Positions 1 through 50,287 of a stretch of DNA of 64,000 nucleotides are shown in pieces. The DNA lies in assembly GCA_008632985.1 (NCBI GenBank), contig QPGO01000072.1, positions 310,001-374,000 of the forward strand, in the 5' to 3' direction. The notes beneath the pieces were generated by a model. It was not told the origin of the DNA, did not search any database, and was given only the letters and a program-made list of their open reading frames with translations. Source of the stretch: Psammoneis japonica (taxonomy: Eukaryota). Within the stretch, counting starts at the first letter, position 1, and each line of letters begins with the position of its first letter. The position numbers and the translations under genes were made by a program.

Positions 1-1168
1 GGTGTCGACTGCAAACCTTGGCAAAACAGCAGCGGCCCCTCTCCACCACGCACCATCACTCTGTGTGCCGCAGTGCCACAAAACAGTGTGCATGGGTTGT
101 CAAATGACATTTGAATCTTCTCAAAAAGGTGGCAGCCACACAGGTGATTGGCAGCCTTGTGCCCATGGTGAACAAAACGGGGGTCTGACATGCCACACAG
201 ACACAACAATGCAGGCCACCAGGATGAGATGGGTGATGCAACAAACTGAGGGCCATTGCAAGGCATGCCAACCTGCAGTGCAGTGCAGTGCAGTGCAACA
301 AGTGCGCACAATTGAACGGTTGATTTTTGAATCAGAGCCAGTGAATTTTGTGTGCGTGCACACAGCCATCCATTTTTCAAATGTTCTGGTGTCCATTGGG
401 GTGGTGGTGGCTGGCCCCAATGTCATCAGCAGCTTGCACAATGTGCTTCCACATCCCACCAGATGTTGTGGAGATCATGCAACCTTTTTTGCCAGTGCTT
501 GAATTTCCACCAGCTCCAACAGCTTCAGCGGTCACTTTGTTTGCTCAAGCACTCCTGGGCTCTTTCAACCTGGGGGTGCTGAATGATGGTCGTGGGTGTG
601 GTCATCCACCAGCATGTGCAAGCATGGTCACATCAACGACAACGTGCACACCAATGTTCAGGAGTTTTTGGAGCATGCTGTTTGTGCAAGTGGCTGCACC
701 TGTGCTTCATGTGATGCAAGGTTTTCTGCACAAGGAGTTTCCCAGTGCTTTGAGCTTTGAAAAGCTCAATCTTCTTCTTTCTGCCTTTTTTCAGCAATTT
801 TTTGGATGAAAGTGCAACACAAGGGCCGTTGCAGTTGGCTCAATGGACCACAAGTTGCATGAGCTGCTCTTGATCATCCTTCACAAGTGGCTCCAATTGC
901 TGAAGCACCCGTTGTTGGACATGTCTTCTTCACTTGGTTTGTTGGCGTTCCATGCATGCTGCTGCCCCCACGCATGTTGTGATGGCTCTTTCTTCTCTGG
1001 AAAATTTTCTGGGCAGATTTGATTGCCCATCACCACATTGCACAGTGGATGCTTCTTGAGCAATGAGGGTGGAAGAAACAAACACATTGGACCAACTTTC
1101 TCAGAAGCTGTGTCATGGTGTGTTTTCCAGTGTTTTTTTTGGGGGGAAAAGCCCAATTTGTCTGCTGT
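1..1168. mobile_element. Distal part of the decayed ~9 kb repeat (putative DIRS-like element), copy 0; continues at 3063-~3350 after an insertion
   Basis: Aligns by eye to 48430-49590 (close) and 35417-36600 (more diverged). Almost no TpA or CpG dinucleotides. Confidence 0.65.
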
Positions 1169-3062
1169 TGTGAGACCCAGGCCTTAAGGTGGTACGGGTA
1201 CAAAAGTGGGCCAGATTCTACGCACGTAGAGCTTAGTATGTTTTCTACACAAATCGCCAAAGTCGGCTCGCCAACTTGAACCCTCTCCAGGACGATGGAA
1301 ACTTGGACATTTCACATAACAAAGTGTTTCGACTATTTAATTACACTCTCCTCGACTTGTTTAGGGAGAGAAGTTACAAGTTTTCATAGGTTTCTGAGGA
1401 TATATAACGAATCTAATCAGAAAGGTGCCGAAATCGCGACGTTCGAGTTTTAAAGAGCTATACAAAACGAGAAACCCATGGAAACTTGTAACTTCTCTTC
1501 ATAAACAAGTCGAGGGGAGTGTAATTAAGTAGTCCAAACACTTTGTTATGTGAAATGTCCCAGTTTCCATCGTCCTGGAGAGGGTTCAAGTTGGCGAGCC
1601 GACTTTGGCGATTTGTGTAGAAAACATACTAAGCTCTACGTGCGTAGAATCTGGCCCACTTTTGTACCCGTACCACCTTAAGTAACTTCAAACTGGCATG
1701 GCCGGCGCGCTCCGGATGAGCGTACAGACCATCCCCGTGGTGACAACACGGAGGAATTGTCAAAAACCCGCCGGAGCCGACGATGACATTGACGCGGTAG
1801 AAAAGGTGTCTAAACATTCGTCGTTTTTTGGACCATTACAACAGAAGCTCTATTAGACCCTCATCGATATACCATTGTAATCATCCATTCGGAGACGTAC
1901 AGTTTGGCGAGAAATATTGAAACATACCGTTTCGCTTTGTCGTGACGCCATGTTGCATGCAGACGACGCATCAACTCACCATTTGCCGGATTTTCGGAAC
2001 CCGATGTGTTGAAGTCCGAGTTTATAAAAAGGCAAGTAAATTTAAAATCAAAATTGTGTTACCAATATGTCCAAGGCTCACCACTTGTTGTCTCACTCAA
2101 CTTTCTTGCCGCCGCAGCCAATTCTTGTTGTCTTTCCTAGCATGAGCACATGAACGAATCCAACGTCGTCGTCACATCATCTATCCCATTTGATCAATGG
2201 TATTGAACAGACGAATATTTATAAGACTTTGATAAAGCAACTGTAATGCATTCAGCCAAGCATTCTTGAATGGGAGAGAGTCGGGCGGATTGGAGTGAAA
2301 ATGAAGAATGATGCTGGCGTACGGTTCAACAAAAAAGCAGTCAAACAACGTTGACAAATTATTCTGATGATGTTATTCTATAGGATTATAAATATTAGTG
2401 AATAGAGCTCCTCCCTGGCTTGTATCTACTCTAGATTGATCGCAAAGACACAAATGTCAAATGTGAAAACAGAAGTGTGTTGCTTGTATTGAGTTTTTAT
2501 GGATTACTTGGCCTATCTATAGCATGAAAAAGGTCAAATATAGTTGTCACGAGGCCAGCCATGGATTAGAGAATAGAATATAGCCATGAAATAGGTCTTG
2601 TGTTGATGTTATCATCTAATCTCGGTGTCGAGAAAGGGTCAATTTCCCTTCACGTAAGGTGAGTCACGTGTCTTGAATCCCGCATGACCCACTCGACTCG
2701 AACTTTTTGGAAGAATTAGCTAGACTTTGACCCCCGATAGAGCCATAAAATACACAAGATATGAGCATTATCGGTCTCATACTCTTTAAACCGATGTCTT
2801 GCGAGAATGTAATAGGTATGTATTGTTCATGGTATCTGGTATTTCAAAATAGAACTAACTTTTCGTGGAGCACCTTCATCACACAGGCAAGTGCGAGAGT
2901 CAACATTCAGTGATTGGTCAGTGACTGACGTTCACCCCCATTCTAGGCCCCCAAAAGTGTGCTGAACTACGTATCTGGGTGCTGTTAGTCGATCGAGGTG
3001 GGTGTTTGGTTAAAAACGGGGGGTTAATTTTTACACGTGGCATCATGAAGCTGGGACGGAAA
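1169..3062. other. ~1.9 kb TA-rich insertion absent from the paralogous copies; contains the MITE
   Basis: The paralogue at ~49580-49610 reads continuously across this point. GCTGT is repeated at 1164-1168 and 3063-3067 (possible target-site duplication). No recognisable ORF. Confidence 0.5.
1188..1677. mobile_element. Foldback MITE with ~200 bp terminal inverted repeats, flanked by TTAA
   Basis: GGTGGTACGGGTACAAAAGTGGGCCAGATTCTACG... at 1188 is the reverse complement of ...CGTAGAATCTGGCCCACTTTTGTACCCGTACCACC ending at 1677. TTAA lies at 1184-1187 and 1678-1681. Superfamily not resolved (Kolobok-like TTAA+RR termini or Harbinger-like TAA). Confidence 0.85.
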
Positions 3063-4315
3063 GCTGTGTGAGTCTTGAGACTTTGGCATTGGAGCCACTT
3101 CATTGGCTCTTGGCTGCTTGGTTCAGCATCTCAAATCAACTCCCGACCCATGGGAGGCAAACAAGATTGGCGCCATTGTCCCACGTGAACCTTGCTGTCA
3201 AGGTGTTGGTGATGCCAGTGGGCTCAGAGGTGGCGGTCACTGCTGCAAGTTTTGTTTTTGGTTCCTTGTGCTTTGGAGGAGCAACGAAGCATGTGGAGGT
3301 TTGAACTCTTCTCCAGATTCTTGGCGCTGTTTTGTGATGCACTCTCTCTTGAATGTTTGTGGTTTCCATCATTGTCCTCAGGGGCTTTGTTGCTTTTGTG
3401 AAGTCCACAGATGAAGAGTCAAGCCTTTGGATCCAGAGCTGGTCAGGGTGCTGCTCCCTCTTGCTCCTCCAGAGAACCCGGTTGTCTGGAGGTGGACAGA
3501 TGACATTGTCAACTCAGGCTGGCAAAACTGCCAAACTGCTCATTCTGTTTGGGGGCAACAACTGCTTTGTGTCTGGTCTGCACTCTGAATTTTTTGTGGC
3601 CAAGTGGGCCAAAATTCTTGGAGTGCCCATTGGGCAGGTGCCAACACGCTCTCGCCCATCTGATCCCAGGCAACCTGCCTCAGAAGCACCCTCCTTTTTT
3701 GAAGACTTCAACCTTTTCCCTTCTGAGTCAAGAGTTGCTGCAGCTGGTCTCCTCTCAAATTCTAATTTTTGTTGTGGTGCTTGTGTTTGTATGTGTTCAA
3801 TTCCTTTTGCTGTGTTCATTTACGGAGTTCAAATGCTGTTGTGTTGGCAGGAACAACGACACCGCTCTCACTCGAGTCAGCCACGAGGTCGATGGAGCTC
3901 TACCGGCATTACTTGTCGTTCGTTGGTCGCGGAATCATCTGGTTCCAGCCCATGATTTGGTACAATTTGCTCTCTAGCCTAAGCATTTCAGCATTACTGC
4001 ATATTGAGCAAGGCTGGAGGTTCTAATAGCAGCTGATGCATGGAGCTAGAGATTAGCCCACACAGTGCTCATTATTTATTTGTGATGGCGAGCCAGCCGA
4101 TTTTGTAAATAGTACACAATGCCACAGATCCTATTCATTGGCACGGCAAATTGTGATTTCTTGTCGATCGCGTTGAGATCTGAGAGAAGTTTCAGGTACG
4201 ATAAAGGAAAGTCTCGCCGGTAAGTAATAAAAACTCTGATTTTGGGCGGTTAACAGATGCACAGAGTGCACTCGAGCGAAAGAATGAGACTCCAGCCTTT
4301 GTCGTTATCGGTTCC

Positions 4316-5746
4316 TTAACTGACAAAGGCATGCTTCAATAACTCCCTCGCTGATGGCCTCTTATAAGGATCCTCCATGAGCATCTGCGATGCCATGTCA
4401 TGCGCCAACCACAAGCGCTCATTTTCTTTTGTCCTCGGCGGAACATCGTTGCATTTTGAATGTTCGCATAGCAGTCTACTGAGCATTTGGCCGGTGGCAA
4501 AAATATCAAAAGATGATACGGTAGCATGCATCAAGCGCCATCCTGTTTTAGAATCCTCGGGGGTATCCAATGTGCGGTGCGGACTTCTCGTTGTCGCGTT
4601 TGGTACGAAAAATCGAGATTGATCCCAGTCAAAGAGGTGAGCAATGCCAGTCCTATTATCATGTCGCACGTTGCCCCGACGAATGTCACCATTGATGACG
4701 TTTCGCGAATGTGCAAAATCGAGAGCTTGCAACAAGGATCGCATAAACGGTGCAATCTCCGTGAGACCTTCGGGGACCACCATGTAAGGAATGAACGAAA
4801 GAATCTGTACACTAATCGCCTTTTGTTTGAAGAGCCACTTGCGTTGCTCTTTGGATACACCACTTCTATTCAAACCAACGTCAAGGATCTCATCATCCCA
4901 CGTTCGAAAGGGATTGCCTGATATTCAGAAGAAAAATGTGTCAGATTGTAAATGCTAATGCCTGTGAATTGTGTGATCAAACACATTGCACTCACTCATC
5001 ACTTCGCAGCTCCACAACAGTTTAGGGATACTAGGTGTGCTAGGTTGCTCATTTAAAATTCGAAACGCCTTCATCTCGTTTGCCGTGTAATTGAGAAAGT
5101 CCTGGGAGCCAATCTTCATCACATAAGACTCGTCCCCTAGTTTCGGTATCTTGACTTCAAAGCCCAAATTTACATATCCATTCCCCTTTTGTTGTGGAGC
5201 AAAATCAAGAATCACAACGTTCAGTGTGAGAGTAAGAAATGTATTAAGAACCGATTCTTCAAAAATAAATGTCGGACCATTGCGAGCGCTAGTCATTGGC
5301 ATGCAAAAAAATGCCCACGATCAACAATCAACAACAGCAATAATACTTGTGCTTAACGGATTCCCTTAACAAAAACAATTCCTGCACTGTTATTATTGGA
5401 TAACTCGCGTAATCTACACTCGCCGCTCAACGGAATCGTCTCTCGCAACTCGTAGACTCACCAGAACAGACACTAGCTCAATGTCATAAACTAGGTCAAG
5501 TTTCAATTGATCGTTGGAGTTTCCGTCTGTTGTTGCAACATCATGCCTGTTTTCATCCATCTGGTCGCTCGGAGGACACTGGAATGCTGGAACTAGCGCA
5601 AAATGCCAGAGTGCAATCAGCCAGAACGCAATCAACACAAAGACAAGGTGCGACCATCTGCAAACTCGGTGCTGCTGTTTGCTGGACAATCGAGTTCGTC
5701 TCATAATCGCCGACGCATGGTTGAAATCAGCACGGCTTGTCCTCAT
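4316..5746 (-). CDS. Protein-kinase-like protein with N-terminal TM anchor, copy 1 (exons ~5746-5462, 5185-4996, 4917-4316)
   Basis: GNGYVNLG loop, VMKI, NVINGDIRRGNV catalytic-loop-like motif, LFDWD, FDIFATG and DPYKRPSARELLKHAF. Hydrophobic segment LVFVLIAFWLIALWHFALV. GT-AG introns at 5461-5186 and 4995-4918 join the ORFs in frame. Confidence 0.8.
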
Positions 5747-6059
5747 GGTCGCTGCGAGGCGCGAGATGAAACGACCAACAACAATGTTTTTTCAACAAAA
5801 ATGACAAATTTGTCTTTGCCAAGACTAAGACTGTACCGGTACTGGCTGTACGGTACATACGGTACAGAGCACCGTTCAGCGGAATGTTTTTATTATGTAT
5901 GTACATGCAACGGAAATTAGATTTTTCAACTGATAGATCAACCGTCATTTCTTTGCGGTAGTGTGTGTATCAGTTTTCATAAAGAGAAAATGTATTATCA
6001 CAGTTAAATTTCGTAGGCAATGCGCGCGAAATTTGAATTGATTCTGGCGCCGTGTTCAG

Positions 6060-7147
6060 CATGATGATGGGTTTTTGTTGTCTTCCAGGCGTGGTGTCAG
6101 CACTCTCTGTGGACTGTCGGTTGGTGTGTTGTCTGGACAGGTGGGGGTCGATTGTGTCGGGGTCATTCAGTGTCTGCAAAGGGACAGACCTGCGCCATCT
6201 TCCGACTGGGGTCGCCTGGAGCTGATCTGAGAGGCGGGAATGCAGGATCCCCTGAGGCAACGGTGGGTTGCCCTGACTGTGGTGACACTCATCCTTGTGT
6301 TGACACAGCTGCACACTTCAGAATGTGGCTTTTGCCACTCATCTGAAAGTTTCGACGCCATCTTGCGGAGCATCGTCTTGGCTTCTTTGCTGAAAAGCCA
6401 GTCGCATGATGCAGCGAATGGTGTGAAGTGACAGCATTGCTCAAGACATGGCTTGAGGTGCTTGCGCTTCTTTTCATGTTCGTGGCTTGCCAGGACTTCT
6501 TCTGGTGTTTTGGACAGGTGTGACTTCGCATCTGTGTCAGGGGTGCGAATGTCCGTCACCATGTCTGTCCTTCCACCCCAAAATTTCATGCCGAGAAGGT
6601 CTCCGCGATCGCCATCCTTGGACTTGTTGGAGTTGGTGTTTCCTGGAGAACTGTTGGGGGTGCTTGAGCTTCCCGCACCGTGACCAGTGGGGTTGATTGG
6701 AGGTTTGTCGTGTGCGTGGGAAGGTTTGCAAGCCTTGCCCATCAGGTCGCCCAGGTTGTCACGCACTTCATCATGTCGTGAGATGACCAGGCCACCCTTC
6801 TTGCACTGAAGAGCGTGATTCATGGTGAGCTTGCACCCACATCCATCACAGTGCTCCGGGAGGTTGGGTGGAGTGCTGCCATGCTGTAGAAAGAGTGCGT
6901 TGTGGAACTCTTGGCATGAGAGTTCCGTGCCGTTCAGCGTCAAAGGGCACACTGACAGCCACGCTCCAGTCTTGGTGCTGCACTTGACAGCTCTGGCCTG
7001 AAGGCTGGGCAGGGTCCTGAGGATTGCTTTCAGGGTCTCCCCGTGCACTTTGTCTTTTCTGTTGGCTGCTTCCTGTTTCACTTCGCATGTGGTGTCCTTG
7101 TGGACTGCGGAGGAGAACTGGGAACGGCCGCGGAGTGAGTCGATCAC
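6060..7147 (-). mobile_element. 5'-truncated CRE/SLACS-type non-LTR retrotransposon (zinc finger plus restriction-like endonuclease end)
   Basis: ORF 6167-7147 contains AWLSV.P, CDGCG...HALQCKKGG...RHDEVRD, DRGDLL, D-I-R..D.DAKS and EKKRKH(Y)L motifs. Expected Tyr positions read His/Cys. Left boundary approximate. Confidence 0.75.
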
Positions 7148-7149
7148 GT

Positions 7150-9100
7150 GGGAGCACGTGAGAGCACTTGCCCGTTGTCATCATTTCTGAATTTTTGTTT
7201 GTTTTTACACAACTCATGTTTTTGACAATGAGTCATGCAGCAACCCGTCCATTCCTTTTTGGTTTCCAACAACTGCGCCTTTTCAACATGCTCTTGTTGT
7301 GCTTTTGCTTTTGATGGCAACAACAGTGGATGGTCTTTGTGGCATTTTTCAACATGCTGCTTGTGCTTTGATGTCATCAAGCAACAACAACCCATTTTGT
7401 TGTGTTGTGCAGCTTGAGAAATCCATCCATGCACTCATCCAGCACCCACGCGTGTGTGCGTGCAGCCATCCTCCGATGTGCTCATTTCATGGTCTGCTCC
7501 AAATGACAGAACACATCCCAGTGGCCTGGCTTTGATGCTCTCTTTCCAGGCAAGTGTCCGTGCTTGCTTGTGTCTTCTTGTGCACTGCATCTGAGTCCCG
7601 CAGTGACACAGCATCTTCTCAGCCACTCTCTCCTCACTCTCTCCTGCTTGTGTTGCTGTTGTTGCACTCAAGCCCTCCTTTTCACTCTCTTGCTCTTCTG
7701 CCATTGCTGCTCTGCTCCCATCATGATGAAAACTGAAGGCATGAGAATGAAGAAGACAGGCGTGTCTTCACAAATGCCCCCACACTTTGCACTTTGCAGC
7801 AAAATGCATTTCATGTGGTCAGCCAATGTCAGTGTTTTGTTGTTGCTGCACACACATTGCTGTGTGCACAAATGCAATTGATGCCAGCACAGTGCAAAGA
7901 AAGCAAGAGGGAGCTGCTGCCAGATCTGGAGTCAGAGAGCAGCAAGAAGCAAGAGGCATCTTGCTGCCATTTAAGATTTGTGCACAAGCTGGCTGCAAGA
8001 GCTGTTCAAGCTCTTTGGCTTGCAACCAGTTTGCCCACTTGAGACCCTTGACATTCCACAAACAAATTTTGCAAACAGATTGCAAACAGAATCCAGCAGT
8101 TTGCAAGCTCTTGCTGGCAAGCTGCAAGGGCTGGTTTCCAAAAGTGCACAACAAACCTGGACATGTGTTTTTGGAAATTGAGAGAATGTTGCTGCCTTTG
8201 ACCTCACACAATTCATGCAAGAACAACAACAAGTCAATTCTCTCAACTGAAGCATTCAGTTCACAGCCTGCAGCATGAAAATTGTTTCCGCCTGTTGCAC
8301 TGTGATGGGCCATTTTTTAATTTTGTGCTTGAGTTGTTGAAAATGTTTGTGTGTGTGATTTTTGGCCACATGCACCAATTTTGAGACTGCAAGTCACCAA
8401 ACAAACAATGCTGTTGAGTCTGTCACATTTTTGTCAGTCATTTTCTCATCATTTTCTTGACCAGAAACTTTGCTGTGGGTGCCTTGTGAGACTCGTTCCT
8501 TCTGAACAACACGACAACACATTTTTCTGCACAACAAACACACAACAGTCTGCACACAGGTCAAATGTGATCTGCATTGTTGACCAATGAAGACATGTTC
8601 CAGCTGCACATGAACCAAAGCATGCACAAAAATGACACTTGCAAAATTTTTGTGCAGTTGCAGTTTTCGCAGGACAGGTGGACAATGTTGCAGCGAAGAA
8701 GAGCACACTGACAATTGTTGGCAAATGGCAAATTTGTGTTCATGGCTTGTGACAAGCTGTCTTTTGTTTGCTTTTTGGCCTCTGTGCCCAGCTGGTGTGG
8801 TGGCTGAGGCAGCAGCATTGGACATGCTCCAGAAGCAGGTGGCGGGATCCGTGTGACACTGGGCCCACGGGGCTCTGTGTGTGAGCTCTGCAGCAAAATT
8901 GCTGGGCAACAAATGTGCCAATGGGGCTGCTTGCCAACAGAAAAAGAGGCAATGTTTTGTGAGGGCACAAGCTTGCCCATGACATGCTCCAGTCATGTGT
9001 GAACCAAAGCATGCACAAGGTCTCTGATTTGCAAACAAGCTTTTGCCACCCAAAATGCAGACTCATCTAAATTTTGATGTTTTGCAACACTGACAAGACT
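7150..9100. repeat. TpA/CpG-depleted repeat DNA of unknown family
   Basis: Extreme TA depletion. ~8820-8960 is homologous to ~63080-63210 (GAGCTCTGCAGCAAA...GCCAACAGAAAAAGAGGCAAT). Confidence 0.5.
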
Positions 9101-9129
9101 TGTGTCAGCGCTGCAACATCATTGTTTTT

Positions 9130-10781
9130 GTGCAATCAATGTTTTTTCATGGTGACAATTTAGTTGCAACACAGGGCCAGCTGATGACTTTTGCCAATGT
9201 TGTTGAAGATTCATGAGCCAATGCTGTTTGGAGGTTGGCACAAAACATTTCTGCACACATTTTGCAGCAGTGGTCTGCTTGCACAAAAGTCTCTCTGCAA
9301 TGTGAGTGCTGACACAGAGTCAAAATTGTTTCCAAAGAAAAATCCTGTGAACATCATGTGTCCCATGATGAAGACTCAAACACTGATGAAAAAAATCTTT
9401 CAAATGTTCATGCTCCAACCAAACATGAAAGCCAGAGCACATGAGTGGTTTTAATGAACAGATGCCAGTGCACAAAGCTCACAAAAATTGTGTTCAAAAG
9501 GAAGTGTCATTTTGTGTGTCACCTGGGACTGGAACACATCTAAAACTTGTGCAATGTTTTGTTTTGGACAAGGCATTGAAAATTGTGTTGGGACACCAAA
9601 ACCACAGTGGCCTCACAACCTCCAGAAAACAAAAAGGGAAGCACAAGGAACAGGTGATGCAAGCAGAGTTGTTCACAGTGATGCAGTTCCTGCTTTCATC
9701 TGCTTGACAAGGGAGCAGGGCAAGCTTTTGAGACAAAATCAAAACTGACCTCAATTTTGATTTTGGTTTTGCATTTTTTCACTGGCAACTCTGCTGGTCA
9801 GCAATCAGTTTCAATTGGCAATCAAAACATTGAGCACATCTTGAACTTGAAAATGTTCACAGATGCACCCACACTCATGCTCGCGACTCAGTGGTGGCCA
9901 ACAATTTTTGACCACTGCTTTCTTTGATGAGCCATCAATTTGATTGCTTTGTTTTTGTCAGAAACACAGCAGATGACTGTCATCATTTGCCCGACATTTT
10001 CTGTTCAGTTTTCAAAAATGTCAATGAACACCTTCAGCAATCCAGGTGGTGCTGCTTGCGTTGACATGTGCTTTTCAACACCCACTCTCTCTGTGACACA
10101 CACTGAAAATCTGGCTCTGTGATGTGACTGGTTTGAGGTGGTGAAGGCTCATTGAGGCTGCACTTGCAGCAACTCCAAACACCCTTGTTGGCCATTGCTT
10201 GCCTCCAAAAGCAGTCCTGGGCTTCTTCTTTGTGGCAGGACCAAAGAGTTGACAAAGGGAGAGGCTCTTTTTTGAGGTGTCAAGTTTGTGCTGATGAAGC
10301 TGTGATGCAATGTGTGTGTGTTGTGAGAAATGGAAAATGACAGGGGGAAACAACCGGTCATGTGTTTTTTTTAAATCACAGCATTGTGAGAGAGAAGTGC
10401 AAGATTTAAACTGTGCAGAACTTGGCACCTTTTCTGCATGTGTGGCAAACATGTGCACTTTTGCACCAGAAAGAGATGCCATGTGCCCTCTCTGTGACAT
10501 GTGCTGAAATTCCACATGCACCCCCAGTGTGTGTCAATGTGAGCAGTCTGTGGGCCAAGCACAAGGAGAGGAGGATGTCCCAGGGGTGGCTGTGCTCTTG
10601 GAGGAGTCGCCAGGTGATGGTGACATGCAGCACAAGGTGGGCACACAGATGTGTGGAGACAACAAGAGGCCACCCCCCAGCTCTCCTCATTGTTCTTGGC
10701 AAACAATCAGCAGCAATGGTTGTTTTGTGCAGTTGCCCACACATTGGACATGGCGCCAATTGTCTCTGTGGTTTGGCTTTG
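9130..10781. mobile_element. Left part of decayed ~9 kb repeat, copy A (interrupted at 10781/28918)
   Basis: Aligns to ~40520-42260. The paralogue reads GGCTTTGACTGGCTGATC uninterrupted where this copy is split. Confidence 0.7.
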
Positions 10782-13273: not shown

Positions 13274-13278
13274 TGAGT

Positions 13279-14379: not shown

Positions 14380-14460
14380 TAGTCCAAGATTTCAAGTCAA
14401 GTCTAGCTCAAGTCAAGTCTTTTTCAAGCCAAGTTCCAAGTCAAAACTCCGAGTCAAGAT
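14380..14460 (+). repeat. TCAAG-rich short repeat cluster in the element's 5' leader
   Basis: TTTCAAGTCAAGTCTAGCTCAAGTCAAGTCTTTTTCAAGCCAAGTTCCAAGTCAAA just upstream of the ORF. Confidence 0.6.
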
Positions 14461-16861: not shown

Positions 16862-16866
16862 TGAGT

Positions 16867-39025: not shown

Positions 39026-40259
39026 TTAACTGACAAAGGCATGCTTCAACAGCTCCCTCGCTGATGGCCTCTTGTGAGGATCCTCCATGAGCATTTGCGA
39101 TGCCATGTCATGCGCCAACCACAAGCGCTCATTTTCTTTTGTCCTCGGTGGAACATCCTTGCATTCTCCTCATTCGCATGGCAGTCCACTGAGCATTTGG
39201 CCGGTGGCAAAAACATCAAAAGATGATGCGGTGGCATGCATCAAGTGCCACCCTGTTTTAGAATCCTCGGGGGCATCCAATGTGAGGTGTGGACTTCTCG
39301 TTGTCGCGTTTGGTGCGAAAAATCGAGATTGATCCCAGTCAAACAGGTGAGCAATGCCAGCCCCATTGTCACATCGCACGTTGGTCCAACGAATGTCACC
39401 ATCAATGACGTTTCGCGAATGTGCAAAATCGAGAGCTTGCAGCACGGATCGCATGAACGGTGCAATCTCCGAGAGACCTTCGGGGACCACCATGTGAGGA
39501 ACAAATGAAAGAATCTGTGCACCAATCGCCTTTTGTTTGAAGAGCCACTTGCGTTGCTCTTTAGATGCACCACTTCCATTCAAACCAACGTCAAGGATCT
39601 CATCATCCCACGTCCGAAAGGGGCTGCCCATCACCCAGAAGAAAAATGTGTCAGATTGCAAACACTGGTGCCTCTTGATTGTGTGATCAAACACATTACA
39701 CTCACTCACAACTTCGCAGCTCCACAACAGTTTGGGGACACCAGATGCACCAGGTTGCTCATTTAAAATTCGAAACGCCTTCATCTCGTTTGCTGTGTAA
39801 CGTGGAAAGTCCTGGGAGCCAATCTTCATCACACACGACTCGTCCCCTAGTTTCAGTGTCTTGACCTCAAAGCCCAAGTTTGCATGTTGTCCATTCCCCT
39901 TTGTTGCACAATCGCAGGGACTCCAGGTGAGTGAAAGCAAACGCAGAAGATTGAAAGGCAAGATGAAAACGCACAAGAACAGATGCCAGCTCAATGTCAT
40001 AAACCAGGTCAAGATGCAATTGATCGTTGGAGTTTCCGTCTGTTGTTGCAACATCATGCCTGTTTTCATCCATCTGGTCGCTCGGAGGACACTGGAATGC
40101 TGGAGCTAGAGCAAAATGCCAGAGTGCAATCAGCCAGAACGCAGTTGGCACAAAGACAAGGTGCGACCATTTGAAAACTCGGTGCTGCTGTTTGTTGGAC
40201 AATCGAGTTCGTCTCTTCATCGCCAACGTGTGGTTGAAATTGACACGGCTTGTCCTCAT
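39026..40259 (-). pseudogene. Kinase-like gene copy 2, hypermutated
   Basis: Colinear with copies 1 and 3 but with systematic TA->TG/CA changes, a destroyed intron-2 acceptor (TAG->TGG near 39629) and a premature TGA at 39170-39172. Confidence 0.85.
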
Positions 40260-40519
40260 GGTCGCTGCGAGACCAACAACAATGATTTTTGTACAGTGCA
40301 GTGTGATGCTGCACAGCACATGCCGCACAGAGCACCGTTCAGCAGACTTGGTTTTACACACTGAATGTTTTTATGTACATGCAACGGAAATTCGATTTTT
40401 CAACTCACAGATCAACCTTGTTTCTACATGTGTGTCAGTTTTCATGATTTCCGTTATCATCATTTTGGTTTTTCTTTACAGTGCCTCATGTTTTTTCCGA
40501 CATGCTCTTTTGCGCTCTC

Positions 40520-43500
40520 ACTTTTGATGTCAACAACAGTGGATGCATTTTTTAATTGGAGTTGCAACACAGCTGATGATTTTTGCCAATGTTGTTGAAA
40601 ATTTTGTGCCAACAACGCTGTTTGGAGGTTGGCACAAAACATTTCTGCACACATTCTGCAGCAGTGGTCTGCTTGCATGAAAGTCTCTCTGCAATTTGAT
40701 GTGAGTGCTGTGACATGGAGCCAGAATTGTTTCCAAAGAAAAATCCTGTGAACATCATGTGTCCCATGAAGACTTGAACACTGATGAAAAAATCTTTTGA
40801 ATGTTCGTGCTCCAACCGAACATGAAAGCTGGAGTGCACGAGTGTTTTCAATGAACAAACACCAGCGCACAAAGCTCACAAAAATTGTGCTCAAAAGGAA
40901 GTGTCATTTTGTGTGTCGCCTGGGGCTGGAACACACCTGAAACTTGTGCAATGTTTTGTTTTGGACAAGGCATTGAAAATTGTGTTGGAACACCGCTGCG
41001 GCAGCCTCACAACCTCCAGAAGACAAAAAGGGAAGCACAAGGAGGAACAGGTGGCACAGCATTGCACTCTGATTGGACAAGATGTGGTTGCATCAGCACA
41101 AGCAGAACTGTGCACAGAAATGCCATTCCTGCTTTTGTCTGCGTGGCAAGGGAGTGGTGGGGCAAGCTTTTGAGACAAAATCAAAGCTGACCTCAATTTT
41201 GATTTGACTCTGCATTTTTTTGCTGGCAACACTGCTGGCTCGCAATTAATTTTAATTGTCAATCAAAACATTGGGCACATCTTGAACTTGAAAATGTTTG
41301 TAGACAACACCCACACTCATGCTCATGACTCAGTGGTGTCCAACAATTTTTGACTGCTGCTTTCTTTTGATGAGCCATCAACTGGACTGCTTTAATTTTG
41401 TCAGAACCCAGCAGATGACCATCGTCATTTGCTTGACATTTTCTGTTCAGTTTGCAAGAATGTCAATTCACACCTTCAGCAATCCAGGCGGTGCTGCTTG
41501 CATTGACATGTGCTTTTCAACACACCCTCTCTGTGACACACATTGAAAATCTGGCTCTGTGATGTGACCAGTTTGAGGTGATGAAGGCTCATTGAGGCTG
41601 CACTTGCAACAACTCCAAACACCCTTGTTGGCCATTGTTTGCCTCCAAAAAGCAGTCCTGGGCTTCTTTGTGGCAGGACCAAAGAATTGACAAAGGGAGG
41701 GGTTCTTTTTTGAGTTGTTGAGTTTGTGCTCATGAAGCTGTGACACAATGTGCGTGCATTGTGAGAAATTGAAAATGATGGGAAAAAACAACATTGTCAG
41801 GGAGAAGTGCAAGATTCAAACTGTGCAAAACTTGGCACCTTTTCTGCATGTGTGACAAACATGTGCATTTTTGCACCAGGAAGAGATGCCATGTGCCCTC
41901 TCTGTGACATGTGCTGAAATTCCACATGCGCCCCCAGTGTGTGTCAATGTGAGCAGTCTGTGTGCCAAGCACAAGGAGAGGAGGATGCCTTGGGGTTGGC
42001 CATGCTCTTGGAGGAGTCACTGGGCAATGGTGACATGCAGCAGCAGGTGGATGGACAGATGTGTGGAGACAACAATGAGAGGCCACACCCCAGCTCTCCT
42101 CATTGTTCTTGGCAGACAAGCAGCAGCAATGGGGCTGGCTGTGGTGACCCAACATGGGACAACAACACTCAAAAATTCCTTTCTGTTGACTGGCAGCCAT
42201 GTTTTGTGCAGTTGCCCACACATTGGATGTGGCACCAATTGCATCTGTGGTTTGGCTTTGACTGGCTGATCTGGCCACCACAATTTTGTCTCTCAACCAC
42301 ACACTGTGCTGTGGATCCAGAGAGTCTCCACAAGCCAGCTGATTGTGCATTGTGCATGATGCCTGCATTGTCTCATTGACTCTGACACACATCCTCATTG
42401 GAGCACGGGCATTGCAGCCAGGTTGTTCTGTTGGTTTTTGGACTGGGGTGATTGTCCTGCCACCTCAGAAGCATCTTTGATCACATGGAACCTGGATTCA
42501 TTGCACAAGTCCACCAATTCTGGAGGCTGCAGCTTTGGTCTTGTCTCATTGTTTCTGATCTCTTGCATCAGAACACAAACCCAGCCTCCATCTGTGCAGC
42601 CTGCTTGCACTCCTCCTCTTGCTCTGTGCCTGTTGTGTCTGTCATCAAAATTGGCCCCAGCACTGTGTCTTCATTTTGCCCATGATTGCAGTTGCCACAT
42701 TTTGCACTCACATTGAGTGCATGTTTGTGATTGCATCTCCTCTTTTGATCATTGCAATGGTCTTGCTTCTGTTGTTTTTGCCACATCCAATGATTTGCAA
42801 AAAAAGGTCTTTCAGTGTTCAGAAGACACAACTCCTTTTTGCATTTTGAACAAAATGTTGTGCACATTTTTTGACATTGGTGTTTTGTGAGCATTTTTCC
42901 AATCTTTCCACTTGTCATCTGGGAGCTTCCACAAGTGTTCAACCTCAGATGGAATTGGGGGTGTGTCTGCATGGCTGCATTTGCCTGTGAAAAAATCGTG
43001 ATCACAGCTCTGTGAGTTTTCAAACTCTTGGGACGGGATCACTTTTCCCTTTTTTTCTTTCTGTTCATCAAAATTTTGGCCTGCTCCACCTGACACTCAG
43101 TCTTGCAGACCTGCTCTCAGTGCACGATGGCACTCTGGTCATGCACAAGTTCACAGCAAAGCTCTCATCCAAAAAACTTGTTCTCTCTCACAACACCCCA
43201 GTTTTGCCTTTTTGCACTCATCTTTCTTGTCTGCCTTCCAGTTCCATCCTGCCACAGCTGCTGATGTCCTTGCCACAATTGAGCATGACAAAACTTCTCC
43301 CACTGAGTGCTTCTTGCAGTTGGGCCCCAAGGCTGAGCGTTCACTCAACCAAACAAAGCTTGTTCTCCATCACAACACCAGTTCTGACATTGCCAATTTC
43401 ATGTGTGGTCAATTTGACCAGCTCCTCTTGTTTCACGAAAGTCACATCATTGCAGTTGTGAAACACAGCTCCCCTTTGTGCATGGCAGCAATGAAGTCAA

Positions 43501-46500
43501 GCACTTGTGCAGCTTCTCTGACATTGCCGGTGAAGTTGCTCCCATGTTGGGAACTTGCCAATGTTTTGAGGGACACTTTGTGTCCTTGGTGCCCCAAGCT
43601 GATGCAGTGATGTCTGGCTTGCCTCATGCTGAGACTCCTCCAGATGATGTTGAGGGACCTCCACTTGCTGACAGCGCCAATGATCCAGCATCTCTTCAAC
43701 ACCTCAATTTGGGAATCCTTCCAGGGCTGAAGAACAAGCAGTCATTGTTGCTCTCCCATGGCCTTTCCTCTCCCTCCAGGTTGCTCCTGTCCCTTGGAAT
43801 TCACTCCTGACAGTTGTCTCCAGTGCCAGACATGTTGTGGAAGGCAGTTGGTTGCATCCAACAGCATGTGCCAGTTTTGTTCTCTCAATCAAGGAGAACC
43901 TTGTTTTGACCAAGCCACCAACAGCCTGCAAGTTGTCAATGATTTCATCAGTCTCAACATTTGCAACTTTTTGATGATGATTTTCAGGTGGTGGCACCCT
44001 TTTTGGACAATCATGCAAGTGTCCAAACCATGGTCAGGACATCCTCTGCTTTGACCTGGCAGTTTTTGGGGGGGCATGGTTCAAGGCCCAACTGCCAATG
44101 ACATTGCAAATGGAGCTCAGACAGAAGGAGTTGTTGCCCCTCAAGGACCCACTGCACTGCCAACGTCAGAGCCCCTGAGATGAAAAAGGGTGAGGATCAC
44201 AAGAAGAGGGCCACTGACATCCATGTTCTTGGCACTCTTTGTCCTTTTGCCACACAAGGTGGCAGGTTCTGATGCTGTTGCTTTGGGTGCACTCAAGCCA
44301 GTTTTTGTCAATGCTCTCAAACAATCAAGCAAGACTGGGTGGGCTTGGCTGCCGCACTTGTGAGATTGCTGTCATGGCACTCAGCAGCAGCAGGAGGTCA
44401 ATGAATGTCTTTGATCAAGTTTTTGCCTTTCATGCTGCTTGTGCAAATGAGGCTTTTGTAGATGGCATCATCTGTTTCTTTTGTCCCTTGCCTTGCTGAC
44501 CAGCCTCCCAATGCTTGGGTCATGACACACATGTGGCCAACATGAACATTGTGAACTTCCTTGGTCCTTGTGTGGACAGCCACACTCAGAATTGTTCCCA
44601 GAAGGTCAAAGAGGGCCAACAGATTTCTGAGCACTCTGTCGTGATGGACTCCAACAATGCATTTGCTAAATCAATCAAGAGCTCTGCTCTTTACAACACG
44701 GGTCAAGCTCATGATTTCTCAGACATTGTTTTGGCTCTTGGCAAGTTCAGGCTCATCTTCAATGCTCTTGTTGATGACTTTGATGATGAGGCTCTCTGGC
44801 AACAGCTTCTCCATTGCTGCCATGTTGCTTTTGGCAAGAGTGGCAAGCAGCAGATTGCATGCAATGGCAACACTTGCAAAATTGCTGCCAATGTGCTCAA
44901 CAGCATTCAAAATGTCATTTGCACCTTCTCCCAACTTGGCAGCATCCCAGATTGCCATGAGACTGTCTGCAACTCACAGCACATCAGCACCCAGGCTCTG
45001 GACATCTCCAAGCACTTGACAAACCAGTCAATTCAGGATTTTGAAACCAACGTCAGTTGTGCCCCCCCCCCTTGGAACCTTTGGAAGCAAGTGCTTGCTC
45101 TTTCAGCTTGCTGTGGAGTCAAACTCTGCTTTGAGTGGCTGCTGGCAAGCATTCAGTCAATTCTCTTCTGGCTGCAGTGTCTCCATCCAAGAAAGCAAAG
45201 TCTCCCTTGTTGGCATCTAACCTTGAATTGAGCAAGAAGATGGGGCTCCTCCTGGTCATTTCTGGAAACCCTTGCTGGCCTTCTGTTGCCCCAGTTGTGG
45301 CCAAGAAATGTGTCAATTTGAGCACTGAAGAGCATGTGCACCCTCATTCAGTGATGTGTGAGTTCTGTTGCAGCCGTCCCAAGTGCAGCAAGCCCCACAT
45401 TGCAAATTTGTGCAACCTTCCTCAGGCCAAACACAGCTGGCTGCTGATCAAATTTGTCAATGGCTGATTTTGACAACCTGTCATTTGCCAAGGGAAAAGC
45501 CCCAGCAGTGCAGCTGCATGGTTTCATCTTGTGACAAACCAGCAAATCTGTTTTTCTGAATGTCATCTCTCACCTCCATTTTTGTTTCAGTTTTTGTCAA
45601 CCTTGTGCTTTGCAAGCTTGCATTGTTGACTTGGTTGCTGCAATTTTGGATGACAAAATGGATGTGATCTGAGCTGCAGAAGCTGAAGCATGTGCTGAAA
45701 ATGACGTTGTCCCCACTTTGACCAATGGAAACCAGCAGAGGGTGTCAAAGTCCATTGGGTTGGTGCAACAAGATGTTCCTGATGCCGCTCCAGTCTCCTC
45801 CAAAGAGATCAAGAAATTCTTTTCAGAGCCATCTCTCCTGTGAACTTGTTGGGGGCTGGTGCTCCTGCACCCACCTCAATGATTGACAACTTTTTTTAAG
45901 AAATCTGAATTAGAAAAGTTCATCAGAGCAAACCTTTCCAATCAAGGAGGGCCCCACTTGCACCAACCTTTTGGCAATGACAATGTCAGTCAAAAGCTCA
46001 CCTCTGTGGCTGCTTTTTCTCATGTTTTGCTGCCCCTTTGGAAGTCTGGCTTTTTGCATGATGACACTGGCAAACAGAGTTTTCTCTTGTTTCCACTGAT
46101 TTTGTCAGCAATTGGGATGACCTGTGTTGTGTTGCATTGCACTGGCTGCCTGGTGCCTCTGTGCTCTTCTTTAGGAGCATGGCAACATTGACTTCAACAC
46201 CCTTCAAGGATGCCCTGATGATTGGGAGAGCGAAGAAGACCTCAACAAGGATTGCACCCAAAAAACTGCATCTGCTCTTCTCCATTTTGATGAGGACATT
46301 GTCAGTGCAGCAGGTCAGAGGCCCGCATGTTGCTGTGCACAGAAAGAAAGTTGACAAGATCATCTCATCATTTTTGGATGGCAAAGTGGACCCTGCTGTC
46401 ATTTCAACTGTTTGTCAAGATTGATCCAGGAAAAACTCACAAGGTGCTTGCAAGGGACTCCAAGCATGGCTTCGTCCCAACCTTTGATTGGCAAATCACT

Positions 46501-49500
46501 CCTTTTGCATTGAATTGTCACTTTTTGCCTCAGAATCAGGTTGACATCAACAAATTGTTCAAGAGCCCTTGTCCAGGAGTCTTGGATTTTGGCCACTTTA
46601 ATCATCTGTGGCCATCAAAGGTTTTTTGTCACTGGAGGTTGAGTCTCCTCAACTGACACCACTGCTTGGATGGACTTTGTGTGTTGGGTTTACAATGCCC
46701 ACATTTCACACCCAACACAGGACATCCACCCAATTGACAATGATGTGATGGAAGCACACAGCATGATGAAATGCAATCTGAACTTGGCTGGCATGCATGC
46801 ATCAGTCCAGTGTGGATTTGGTGTCACACAGACTGGGCGCAATTTTGGAGACATGCCCAACCCATGCAACAGAGACCAGGACATTAAAAAAAATGGGTGA
46901 AAGTGCACCAAGTGCATGAAAAATAAAAAAACAGTGCACAGCAAACATCAGAAGATGCGCAACATCAAGGAGCTGTGAGAAAGTCAGCTGACAACATTGT
47001 CAGAGACAATGAGATCAAAACAACTCCTGCATTGCCAGTGCAACAAAGAAGCAGTCATTGATGTCAAACATTTGTGTCACACAGGCTTGTGCATGAAATT
47101 GGCCTGGAACCCAAAGGTGAGCCACATGCCACATCATGCTTTTTCCACATTGGTGCTCAAGTTGACCTTGATGCCACACTTGATGTGTCCAGACAACTTC
47201 AAGACACATGAAGCATGTTCATTGCAAGACATTTGTGCTGCCACTGATGACAATTGGGGTGCTTTTGCATGTTTTGAATTTCCCTTCATTCCAAGAAAAT
47301 GTGGGCGCACAAAGTGCACTGCTGGGATGACTGAAGAGAGCCATCAACATTTCTCCCACCAAGGCCAATCTCAGGAAATGAAGTCCTGGTGCCACATGTG
47401 GGGTGATGACTTTCTGAGGAGTTGTTTCTGTGCTGAGCTAGAATTTTTGATGAAAGAACCACATGAATTGTGGGTTGTTGATTTTCTGTCTGATCTGAGG
47501 TAGAATGGCATGCACCACAGGCACAACAAACCTGTCCTCTTGGTGACAGAACAAGCTGGCAGAACACCAAACACAAAGAATTGCCTTAAGATTTCCAGCA
47601 AGTCTCAGACCCACCACTCATGTCCTCAAAAATTCACTTGCCAACAAGGCAAAATTTGTTGAGTCAACCCTCTGGCAGCAACCAAGTCATGCTCTCTCAA
47701 GCTCAAGCAGCTGAGTGCTCTCTCTGGCAAGGTCAATGAATGTGAGTTAGTTTGCCGTGTGCAGACAAGGTGCCACAGAGCTCAACATTCTTGTCAGACA
47801 GTTCAATGCCCTGCTTTGACATGAGCAGAACACAGAATTGCTGCCACTGGTCTCTGACCACTCTGGGAGACAGTCCTGTTCTCAAGCTCTTGGAGCAGTG
47901 CAGGCTGGGAATTTGAGTGCCAGGCAGTTCTTCTGCAGAGTTGCACAGGGAAACTCCACCAATGAGGCCAAGACAAATGCAAAAACAAAGCTTGCTGTCA
48001 TCCCGACCATGCAGTTCATTGCAATGGACAGCCCAAAAAACCCATCGCACTAAAAGAGGTGCAATCAAAAAGAGCTGGACATCAACTTCCAGACACCCAC
48101 ATGGCACAAACAGGTTTCTGCATTGGCCATGTCTGATTGAGCACAGTTGTGAGTTGGCCTGACCACCACAATCCATGCATGGCTTTTTAAAAGACCAAGC
48201 CACCTGCACCAAAAGGGCTCACCTCCCAGATGAGGGGGGCTGCAATGATCCAGAATCCAAGTGTGCAGCACAGACGGGAAGCATTCACAAGACTGGATGC
48301 AACCACAGTCCTGGCAGTGTTGATGCACACTTGTGCAAAAACCAGGTTCACCTCCAATTCACAGTCAGAACCAAAGTTGGGATCTTGCCAAGCACACACA
48401 CACAAAGGAATCCTGAAATGAAGAGAAAGGTGTCGACTGCAAACCTTGGCAGAAACAGGCAGCAGCGGCCCACCAAACGTGGCATCTCTCCACCACGCAC
48501 TGTCACTCTGTGTGCCGCAGTGCCACAAAACAGTGTGCATGGGGGTCATCAAATGACATTTGAATCTTCTCAAGAAGGTGGCAACCACACAGGTGATTGG
48601 CAGCCTTGTGCCCATGGTGAACAAAATGGGGGTCTGACATGCCACACAGCCACAACAATGCAGGCTGCCAGGATGAGATGGGTGATGCAACAAACTGAGG
48701 GCCATTGCAAGGTGTGCCGACCTGCAGTGCAGTGCAGTGCAACAAGCGCACACAATTGAATGGTTGATTTCTAAATCAGAGCCAGCGAATTTTGTGTGCG
48801 TGCATGCAGCCATCCATCAAATGTTCTGGTGTCCATTGGGGTGGTGGTGGCTGGCCCCAATGTCATCAGCAGCTTGCACAATGTGCTTTCCACATCCAAC
48901 CAGACATTGTGGAGATCATGCAACCTTTTTTGCCAGTGCTTGAATTTCCACCAGCTTCAACAGCTTCAGTGGTTACTTTGTTTGCTCAAGCACTCCTGGA
49001 CTCTTTCAACCTGGGGGTGCTGAATGATGGTGTGTGGTCACCCACCATGCACAAGCACCACATCAATGACAACGTGCACACCAATGTTCAGGAGTTTTTG
49101 GAGCATGCTGTTTGTGCAAGTGGCTGCACATGTGCTTCATGTGATGCAAGGTTTTCTGCACAAGGAGTTTCCCAGTGCTTTGAGCCTTGTAAAGCTCAAT
49201 CTTCTTCTTTCTGCCTTTTTTCAGCAATTGTTTGGATGAAAGTGCAACACAAGGTTCATTGCGGTTGGCGCAATGGACCACAAGTTGCGTGAGCTGCTCT
49301 TGATCATCCTTCACAAGTGGCTCCAATTGCTGAAGCACCCATTGTTGGACATGTCTTCTTCACTTGGTTTGTTGGAGTTCCATGCATGCCGTTGCCCCCG
49401 TGCATGTTGTGTTGGCTCTTTCTTCTCTAGAAAATTTTCTGGGCAGATTTGATTGCCCATCACCACATTGCACAGTGGATGCTTCTTGAGCAACGAGGTT

Positions 49501-49875
49501 GGAAGAAACAAACATTGGACCAACTTTCTCAGAAGCTGTGTCATGGTGTGTTTTCCATCATTTTTTTGGGGGAAAAGCCCAATTTGTCTGCTGTGTGAGT
49601 CTTGAGACTTTGGTGTTGGAGCCACTTCATTGGGCTCTTGGCTGCTTGGTTCAGCATCTCAAATCAACTCCCAACCCATGGGAGGCAAACAAGATTGGCA
49701 CCATTGTCCCATGCGATCCTTGCTGTCAAGGTGTTGGTGATGCCAGTGGGCTCAGAGGTGACAGTCACTGCTGCAAGTTTTGTTTTTGGTTCCTTGTGCT
49801 TTGGAGGAGTGACGAAGCATGTGGAGGTTTGAACTCTTCTCTAGATTCTTGACACTGTGTCATGATGCACTCTCT
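40520..49875 (+). mobile_element. Decayed putative DIRS-like element, copy B (uninterrupted)
   Basis: Paralogous to 9130-10781 plus 28922-36850 and to 1-1168. RT-like remnants at ~46250-47250. TpA and CpG nearly absent. Boundaries approximate. Confidence 0.55.
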
Positions 49876-50287
49876 CTTGACAAGACGATTTATGCACCTC
49901 TGGGAATCATCTGGTTCCAGCCCATGATTTGGTACAATTTGCTCTCTAGCCAAAGCATTTCAGTATTACTGCATGTTGAGCAAGGCTGGAGGTTCTAATT
50001 ACAGCTGATGCATGGAGCTAGAGATTAGCCCACACAGTGCTCATTATTTATTTGTGATGGCGAGCCAGCCGATTTTGTAAATAGTACACAATGCCACAGA
50101 TCCTATTCATTGGCACGGCAAATTGTGATTTCTTGTCGATCGCGTTGAGATCTGAGAGAAGTTTCAGGTACGATAAAGGAAAGTCTCGCCGGTAAGTAAT
50201 GAAAACTCTGATTTTGGGCGGTTAACAGATGCACAGAGTGCACTCGAGCGAAAGAATGAGACTCCAGCCTTTGTCGTTATCGGTTCC

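Follow-up and report, generated by a model that had tools for sequence, protein, structure and literature searches.

A 64-kb stretch of the genome of the diatom Psammoneis japonica (QPGO01000072.1:310,001-374,000; hereafter the window) very probably carries the footprint, fossil but possibly still active, of a locus-targeted A:T>G:C process that acts at TpA in the nucleus and is of the same kind as that of Bigelowiella natans. We found that the process is directional, specific to TpA and active on both strands, that it changed DNA in place after insertion or duplication, and that the edges of the affected blocks are sharp to within tens of bases. All composition, open reading frame (ORF) and alignment results refer to this single window, and positions are window positions. 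An earlier note on this DNA had inferred TpA>TpG/CpA conversion on both strands of chromosomal DNA; comparisons of kinase gene copies, long terminal repeats (LTRs), Gypsy and piggyBac sequences all agree with this inference, which is essentially right in kind. Its remark that no such pathway had been described is overtaken by a 2026 preprint, which reports A:T>G:C change at TpA only in B. natans (bioRxiv 10.64898/2026.01.13.699255). The kind has thus been described recently, and what is new here is its occurrence in a second lineage, at saturation, with transposons and a host gene among the targets and with a link to CpG loss.

The loss of TA was measured as observed/expected ratios (o/e), which over the whole window were 0.26 for TA, 0.60 for CG, 1.56 for TG and 1.58 for CA. 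The depleted blocks (40,402 bp; GC content 48.8%) hold 185 TA, where ~1,863 would be expected at normal-block density, with o/e values of 0.07 for TA, 0.40 for CG, 1.72 for TG and 1.75 for CA. The normal blocks, made up of genes and unique DNA (17,717 bp; GC content 46.5%), hold 817 TA, with o/e values of 0.645 for TA and 1.02 for CG. The longest run without TA extends over 3,066 bp (41393-44459), and in the gene block the spacing of TA has a median of 16 bp and a maximum of 227 bp. Across 124 windows of 500 bp, TA o/e was inversely correlated with TG+CA o/e (Spearman rho -0.85). These results confirm that the TA loss is sharply bounded and far beyond chance.

TA o/e lies at 0.57-0.82 in genes, intergenic DNA and introns and at 0.00-0.28 in repeats, and the claim that repeats and one duplicated host gene are depleted while the ABCG, ATPase and HMG genes are not was borne out (0.07 vs 0.645). 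These control genes, recognized by Pfam within 52236-61901, encode an ABCG transporter (+), an AAA_16-type ATPase (+) and an HMG-box protein (-); they contain 10, 13 and 12 Tyr codons, respectively, and the region 49891-62641 has a TA o/e of 0.61 and a CG o/e of 1.01. TA is also normal in unique intergenic DNA (0.65-0.72) and in two introns (0.73 and 0.82), so that the equal loss in unique neutral DNA which the earlier note had named as fatal to its idea was looked for and not found. The exceptions to repeat-only loss are one Gypsy half and a young insertion, which are spared, and one host-gene paralogue, which is mutated. The span of 1-49880 previously given for the loss is for the most part depleted, and the islands 1185-3032, 3763-6014 and 17042-18110 inside it have normal TA.

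The direction and the sequence context of the change were read from the kinase gene. Self-comparison of the window identified a triplicated segment of ~13 kb with the order TE_A, TE_B (two unclassified repeats), kinase gene and 'tail' repeat. Copy I occupies 1-5943 and 9162-10719, copy II 28902-42132 and copy III 42241-51454; copies I and III are sisters (~95-96% identity), copy II is older (83-88%), and only copy II contains a hypermutated kinase gene (38507-40417, -; TA o/e 0.13, CG 0.71). Kinase copies I (3763-6014, -; Pkinase E 1.4e-9; TA o/e 0.575, CG 1.01) and III (49903-51544, -; Pkinase E 3.4e-10) have essentially normal TA. We aligned the three copies and scored changes in copy II at sites where copies I and III agree, a comparison that is unrooted. 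The 48 TA common to copies I and III read in copy II as TG (21), CA (16), TA (10) or AA (1). The transition rate was 0.457 for the A and 0.326 for the T of TpA, against 0.00-0.07 for A or T in other contexts, which is the enrichment at TpA of polarized A>G and T>C changes that the earlier note had put up for test. Overall, 36 of 92 TpA positions and 19 of 511 other A/T sites had undergone a transition (Fisher odds ratio 16.6, p 1.6e-19), and only 1 transversion accompanied the 36 transitions at TpA. CpG transition rates in copy II were 0.135 and 0.039, and C in CpA changed at 0.022. Seven sites have TA in one copy, TG in another and CA in the third, and TA is the only one of these states that lies one step from both others.

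These context rates bear directly on the proposal that no special process is needed and that decay of methylated CpG, GC-biased gene conversion or selection against TA would do, to which we assign almost no probability at all. CpG decay is present here and also yields TG and CA, but neither TA nor Tyr codons can be lost by C>T change. An AT>GC bias blind to context does not fit, as A>G amounts to 2-7% outside TpA vs 46% at TpA, and selection is confronted with affected sequences that are dead repeats. Furthermore, related Gypsy loci in metagenomes with a CpG o/e of 0.01-0.2 retain a TA o/e of 0.6-0.7.

We then asked how the outcomes are arranged along the DNA. TG and CA outcomes are interleaved in kinase II (17 runs counted vs ~19 expected), and TG o/e and CA o/e are alike in every block. 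The absence of TG or CA runs, together with the similar excess of both, gives no hint of a processive mechanism or of one tied to transcription or to a single strand. Strand-coordinated tracts were considered as well and rejected, there being no clustering of TG/CA order along kinase II. A search for an extended motif identified only a weak 3' effect, with T-A-A least converted (22% vs 37-52%), and no TAC preference; the contexts of the residual TA rank as TAA > TAG > TAC > TAT. Kinase copies I and III, which are 96.4% identical over 1,256 bp (3931-5186 vs 49903-51158), differ by 24 transitions; 12 of these are at TA sites, of which copy I has changed at 8 (6 to TG, 2 to CA). This suggests low-level or incipient action of the TpA process in these copies.

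For the transposons, polarity can be settled by taking their homologues as outgroups, and the change runs from Tyr to Cys or His. The downstream half of a Gypsy element (11246-13278, -; TA o/e 0.28), partly depleted, carries the C-terminus of reverse transcriptase (RT; RVT_1, 12965-13333) and an ORF with RNase H and integrase domains at 11246-12961 (Pfam RT_RNaseH_2, Integrase_H2C2 and rve). This ORF has no Tyr in 571 aa, while 120 homologues have on average 4.1% and at minimum 2.4%. Conserved Tyr columns were defined by Tyr in at least 70% of the 40 best of these 120 homologues, and all 14 read Cys (10) or His (4). Replacements of Thr by Ala and of Ile by Val, Thr or Met are also over-represented, as would follow from TA steps that span codon borders. 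The piggyBac transposase ORFs, which lie in the two arms of an inverted pair of repeats, both lack TAY codons, and Cys or His stands in 11 of 13 columns with conserved Tyr. The claim of Tyr-free integrase and transposase ORFs is thus correct. Among the motif readings offered with it, AFYSRKL>AFCSRKL and GYYH>GCCH match the consensus of 19 homologues (GCCH sits at the depleted end of Gypsy), and YQGK>HQGK/CQGK is one of three Tyr-consensus columns at which the piggyBac arms differ as His vs Cys; YTDAS>HADAS has to be dropped, as the nearest homologues already read IHTDAS.

Sequence pairs that were once identical show that the change took place in chromosomal DNA. The two LTRs of one element are identical at insertion. 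An LTR element (13279-16861, +; TA o/e 0.19, CG 0.70) is nested in the Gypsy element and splits it, and its LTRs (13279-13555 and 16586-16861; 277 bp) now differ by 25 transitions and no transversion. The differences comprise 8 CA/TG doubles, 3 TA/TG and 3 CG/TG or CG/CA pairs, so that 22 of the 25 changed bases fall in such pairs, indicating that they arose after insertion. The piggyBac-bearing arms (18121-21740, +, with the transposase ORF at 19571-21295, DDE_Tnp_1_7 E 4.5e-35; 23997-27602, -, with the ORF at 24440-26134) are 96.6% identical and show 106 differences. Of these, 98 are transitions, and there are 20 CA/TG doubles, 13 cases of TA vs TG/CA and 38 of CG vs TG/CA. A 42-bp tandem array inside the nested element (15349-16015; 15.9 copies by Tandem Repeats Finder) was counted by hand at one site over 17 units, which read TG (7), CA (5), TA (4) or CG (1). 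The array encodes a 14-residue repeat in which one codon varies as Tyr, Cys or His between units, a trace of TA>TG/CA within the array itself; at a second site the units read CTGG, CCAG or CCGG, which looks like CpG decay. Between the piggyBac arms lie two N runs (21741-22432 and 23478-23718), which are assembly gaps, and an 870-bp self-complementary AT-rich stretch (22434-23303; GC 27-37%) with a TA o/e of 0.17-0.32 and yet a CpG o/e above 1.

Taken together, the LTR pair, the piggyBac arms and the tandem array exclude RNA editing before integration and show that the same ancestral TA was resolved independently in sister copies. If transposon transcripts underwent ADAR-like A-to-I editing and were then reverse-transcribed and reinserted, retroelements among the targets would be accounted for, and the Discussion of the B. 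natans preprint describes A>G change that favours a 5' U as typical of ADAR (bioRxiv 10.64898/2026.01.13.699255). We nevertheless consider this route extremely improbable. Beyond the LTR pair of a single insertion, which diverged at TA, TG, CA and CG steps, the mutated sequences include non-coding repeats, a transposon of the DNA class and one copy of a host gene together with its flanking DNA. A single Gypsy ORF records changes on both strands (Tyr>Cys, 10; Tyr>His, 4), and block edges cut through an element.

The letters themselves were checked against reads. Of the words sampled from 43500-53499, 70% occur in a public run with the same organism label (X1). The contigs assembled from its reads alone cover 30 of 30 bins of this interval, 96 of 165 contigs are at least 99% alike, and they carry the same letters as the assembly, which answers the raw-read check called for earlier in part, for one sample whose platform is not on record. 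Word depth in the read contigs was 56 over the single-copy ABCG gene and higher over repeats. The 40 best-supported differing letters represent 34 events: 6 CA/TG doubles, 9 CG vs TG/CA, 5 TA vs TG/CA, 8 transversions and 6 other transitions. A polishing artefact is excluded by the read-built contigs. Modified bases of heterochromatin misread by the sequencer or polisher, with TA in the true genome, are very improbable as the source of the pattern. The runs come from one sample with platform and library not on record, and the window has N gaps, both of which leave room for such an artefact; but contigs made from reads only, at a word depth of 56 to ~300, have the same letters, and paralogues resolve one ancestral TA differently, following their duplication history, as expected of heritable change and not of a site-specific miscall. 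In amplified short-read libraries, moreover, a modified A or T is not misread as a different base. In sum, GC-biased gene conversion, selection, CpG decay alone, RNA editing and consensus artefact were rejected on the context rates, the LTR and piggyBac evidence and the read contigs.

CpG is depleted too in the most extreme blocks, a point absent from the earlier note. CG o/e falls to 0.0-0.2 at 29-38 kb and again at 41-50 kb, and TA o/e and CG o/e are correlated (rho 0.80, 124 windows of 500 bp). Of the CpG-poor windows, 52 of 53 are also TA-poor, and 33 TA-poor windows retain CpG, showing that the CpG-depleted DNA is a subset of the TA-depleted DNA. In kinase II, 37 of 48 TA were lost, compared with 9 CpG transitions at ~52 CpG. 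These results show that two processes share one territory, and that, per site, the TpA process runs at roughly 6 to 10 times the rate of CpG decay. CpG decay is thus the slower of the two and does not account for the loss of TA. Cytosine methylation of diatom transposons is established, and the shared territory of TA and CpG loss points to methylated, silent chromatin.

The edges of the blocks were located as follows. The mutated repeat at the left end stops at 1184, and the first TA, at 1185, lies directly past the junction of a young insertion. The spared Gypsy island extends to 18110, stopping ten bases short of the piggyBac repeat (18121), and the 180 bp of Gypsy that adjoin the nested LTR element (16862-17041) have no TA. 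This island belongs to the upstream half of Gypsy (16862-18120, -; Pfam RVT_1 and gag-asp_proteas), in which protease and the RT N-terminus were placed at 16859-18232; its part at 17042-18110 has a TA o/e of 1.03 and a CG o/e of 1.19. Copy III switches from depleted to normal between 49880 and 49903, and TA resumes at 49891. Such edges fit either insertions that followed the mutational episode or chromatin domains with sharp borders.

The same maps speak to the targeting rule. The earlier note had the process guided to repeats, which stands in the sense that it is confined to repeat-rich blocks and fails in the sense of repeat-induced point mutation (RIP), since the spared DNA includes kinase copies I and III, half of the Gypsy element and an inverted repeat of 213 nt. 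RIP acts on duplications of a few hundred bp or more with ~80% identity or more. A homology-triggered process of this type, in which any sequence in two or more copies is paired and mutated with TpA as the target in place of CpA, would explain why all the depleted alignable DNA in the window is repeated and why one member of a gene triplication is mutated, and the greater read-contig depth over repeats also fits it. We consider it quite improbable, however. Kinase copies I and III, at 96.4% identity over 1,256 bp and within ~46 kb of each other, both keep a TA o/e of ~0.6. The young 1.9-kb non-coding insertion within the mutated repeat (1175-3062; TA o/e 0.75 and CG 1.02 over 1185-3032), which has a target duplication of ~10 bp with the GCTGTGTGAG-like flank doubled in the alignment to copy III, includes a hairpin whose 213-nt arms (1183-1395/1470-1682) are 96% complementary and unmutated. 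Half of the Gypsy element is untouched and the other half is mutated. The signs of RIP itself are lacking as well: TA falls (o/e 0.07), GC content is not lowered, and C in CpA changes at 0.022. Moreover, the main target in B. natans is single-copy, according to the preprint (bioRxiv 10.64898/2026.01.13.699255). As a separate observation, the read contigs have a loose end at 49594 with the junction letters of the insertion, and further copies of the repeat may carry it.

We return to a locus-targeted process at TpA and to the steps by which it might work. The depleted blocks would be silenced, cytosine-methylated chromatin to which a DNA-modifying enzyme is recruited. More tentatively, the likeliest chemistry would be conversion of adenine to hypoxanthine, a base read as G, by a deaminase with a 5' T requirement. 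We note that tRNA adenosine deaminases naturally act at U33-A34, with the next base free to vary, which matches the loose 3' preference seen in the window. The outcome would be permanently disabled repeats, with Tyr codons turned into Cys or His codons and changes also in Ile, Thr and Val codons beside T. Since A>G on one strand is T>C on the other, an adenine deaminase stands beside other candidates. The authors of the preprint (Mettrop et al.) propose, but did not test, an ADAT2-type adenine deaminase (bioRxiv 10.64898/2026.01.13.699255).

The same targeting with thymine chemistry was weighed against deamination of adenine. Here the T of TpA would be oxidized to 5-hydroxymethyl- or 5-formyluracil by a TET/JBP-type dioxygenase, as a symmetric mark beside CpG methylation, and changed to C. 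Oxidized thymines can mispair with G, and the palindromic target, the change on both strands and the lack of strand runs are as expected for a symmetric CpG-like mark; the common territory of TA and CpG loss is in line with it too. We nonetheless think this route rather unlikely. Among 12 of the 15 papers that mention both 5-hydroxymethyluracil and diatoms, judged by titles and abstract openings, none is about modified thymine in diatoms. A review passage describes dinoflagellate 5-hydroxymethyluracil as randomly distributed, which lends no support to a TpA preference. In addition, the authors of the B. natans preprint favour adenine deamination, having put neither chemistry to a test (bioRxiv 10.64898/2026.01.13.699255).

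Tyr-poor relatives of the piggyBac transposase were found elsewhere. One of 60 homologues, P0264, contains 0.65% Tyr, and at 12 of the 13 Tyr columns it has His or Cys instead. Among the best 150 representatives of a larger library, 6 have <1% Tyr, three of them none, with Cys or His at most of the aligned Tyr columns. The Tyr-poor relatives from public catalogues (P0264, P0365, P0370, P0403, P0383, P0313, P0314 and P0382) are at most 55% identical to the copy in the window. Judged from their sequences, the same TpA footprint may exist in other organisms. We tentatively extend the idea of a locus-targeted TpA process to a possible chromatin-guided, base-modifying defence at TpA common to diatoms and chlorarachniophytes, perhaps to the Stramenopila-Alveolata-Rhizaria (SAR) group. 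In it, TpA would serve as a further palindromic target beside CpG, and an adenine deaminase derived from tRNA-editing enzymes, or a thymine oxidase, might be brought to silenced DNA and remove every TA, together with all Tyr codons and the TAA and TAG stops. Saturation would have been reached over tens of kilobases in this diatom, and the Tyr-less piggyBac relatives elsewhere would be footprints of such a system.

Several points weigh against a locus-targeted TpA process as we read it. The evidence is a footprint in one 64-kb window, and the read support comes from a sample that is probably the assembly's own. The kinase comparison being unrooted, its polarity leans on composition, the sites with three states and the outgroups of the transposons. 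Depleted blocks lie on either side of kinase copies I and III, which are spared, and depletion in 11246-16861 is patchy. Part of the TG and CA excess is due to CpG decay, the ancestors of CA/TG doubles in old repeats are mixed, and among the three-state sites of TE_B, 5 involve CG and 1 involves TA. None of 80 metagenome Gypsy relatives, kept of 577 confirmed, has a TA o/e below 0.3 (minimum 0.52), in a search biased against mutated copies because one of its two patterns contains Tyr and the best-scoring copies are intact. Adenine and thymine chemistry leave the same footprint. Finally, the unmutated young insertion at 1175-3062 and the spared Gypsy half could mean that the process has stopped.

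The remaining depleted DNA of the window consists of repeats. At the left end, TE_B copy I (1-1184) is unclassified, has no TA and a CG o/e of 0.22, and is 91% identical to 48429-49599 and 83% to 35416-36499; past the young insertion, the mutated repeat continues at 3033-3762 (no TA in 730 bp), matching 36585-37257 and 49590-49880. Unclassified repeats depleted in TA and CpG fill 6015-11245 (16 TA, o/e 0.046; CG 0.35; no Pfam domain) and include the 'tail' repeat at 9162-10719, which matches 40560-42132. TE_A and TE_B of copy II (28902-36856), unclassified and depleted in TA and CpG, match 42241-49879 at 83-86%, have per-kb o/e values of 0.01-0.06 for TA and 0.00-0.19 for CG, and differ from copy III by 87 and 33 CA/TG doubles. 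The 'tail' repeat followed by TE_A and TE_B of copy III occupies 40560-49879 (TA o/e 0.05, CG 0.13) and contains the longest TA-free run. A further depleted block without a Pfam domain (62642-64000; TA o/e 0.105, CG 0.46) reaches the end of the window.

A domain search of 235 ORFs of at least 70 aa from depleted regions (of 411 in the window) identified one transposon domain, the Gypsy RT C-terminus at 12965-13333, and three other weak matches under the curated cut-offs; it found no Copia, LINE or DIRS domain. Of the transposon classes named in the earlier note, Gypsy and piggyBac are thus supported by Pfam, while Copia, LINE and DIRS found no such domain among these ORFs. In depleted blocks such as 28902-49880, TAA and TAG are gone, TGA is the sole remaining stop and each of the six frames has long ORFs; 73 stop-to-stop ORFs of at least 150 aa were counted in the window. 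In the right part (49.9-62.6 kb), Pfam recognizes the kinase, an ABCG half-transporter, the AAA_16-type ATPase and a two-HMG-box protein. The top named relatives of an ABCG fragment are from diatoms (Thalassiosira, Fragilaria and Attheya; 64-66% identity), and the top unnamed match has 72%, which places the host among the diatoms. The run search listed no RNA run. Contigs of run X2, labelled 'DNA?', skip 78 and 98 bases at 50888-50967 and 52381-52480, with ends CT..AC and GT..AG, and kinase copy III includes the spliced joint 50888/50967. Run X2 is probably RNA, and the skipped stretches are probably introns of the kinase (-) and ABCG (+) genes. No contig of run X2 spans 43500-49845, a blank from which no conclusion on silence is drawn.

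If this reading is correct, a natural A:T>G:C system acts on resident double-stranded DNA against selfish elements, as the opposite-chemistry counterpart of fungal RIP. A diatom would be its second and far more saturated case, so that the process would not be peculiar to one species, and its targets would extend beyond viral inserts to transposons and silenced gene copies. The territory in common with CpG methylation decay points to chromatin-based targeting. Tyr-free transposon ORFs and TA-free kilobases offer a simple search handle. Gene finders would over-call spurious long ORFs in depleted blocks, transposon proteins would escape domain detection, and models of mutation spectrum and GC content for such algae would need a TpA term.

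The closest known system is that of B. natans. In the preprint, 230 of 231 mutations in two integrated viral regions of mutation-accumulation lines are A>G or T>C, all at TpA, at a rate ~1,000 times the genomic one and in some lines only; the viral DNA is silent, TpA is depleted in the long term with a gain of CpA+TpG, and TpA-poor coding sequences are enriched in reverse-transcriptase and DDE domains (bioRxiv 10.64898/2026.01.13.699255). Both cases share A>G and T>C change only, at TpA only, giving TpG and CpA; both couple the loss of TpA to the gain of CpA+TpG, and both affect RT and DDE sequences. The host here is a diatom (Stramenopila) and there a chlorarachniophyte (Rhizaria). The targets are transposons, unclassified repeats and a host-gene paralogue in the window, in contrast to giant-virus and virophage inserts in the preprint. 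The change is near saturation here (o/e 0.00-0.07 over tens of kb), whereas the nucleocytoplasmic large DNA virus (NCLDV) region there is given a Rho of 0.45. CpG is co-depleted in the window, a matter the Results and Discussion of the preprint do not take up. The B. natans process was demonstrated de novo in mutation-accumulation lines, and ours is known from its footprint. A literature search judged by titles and abstract openings identified this preprint as the one directly relevant work and found no diatom report of TpA-directed hypermutation.

Fungal RIP resembles the process in that irreversible, dinucleotide-biased transitions hit repeats in place on DNA, in sharp blocks, and can strike duplicated host genes. 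However, RIP is a C>T change, for the most part of CpA to TpA, by which DNA becomes AT-rich and gains TpA and stops, whereas TA and the TAA and TAG stops vanish here; and RIP mutates every copy of a duplication, while two 96%-identical copies are spared here. Deamination of 5-methylcytosine at CpG is similar in that a palindromic pyrimidine-purine step decays to TpG/CpA in silenced repeats, and it is also visible in the window. Yet CpG decay leaves TpA untouched, and the 33 TA-poor windows keep near-normal CpG. ADAR and APOBEC likewise deaminate nucleic acid against selfish elements, and ADAR prefers a 5' U. Their substrates are RNA or single-stranded intermediates, with strand-coherent clusters and retro-copies changed before integration; in the window, in contrast, the substrate is resident double-stranded chromosomal DNA of any class, changed on both strands.

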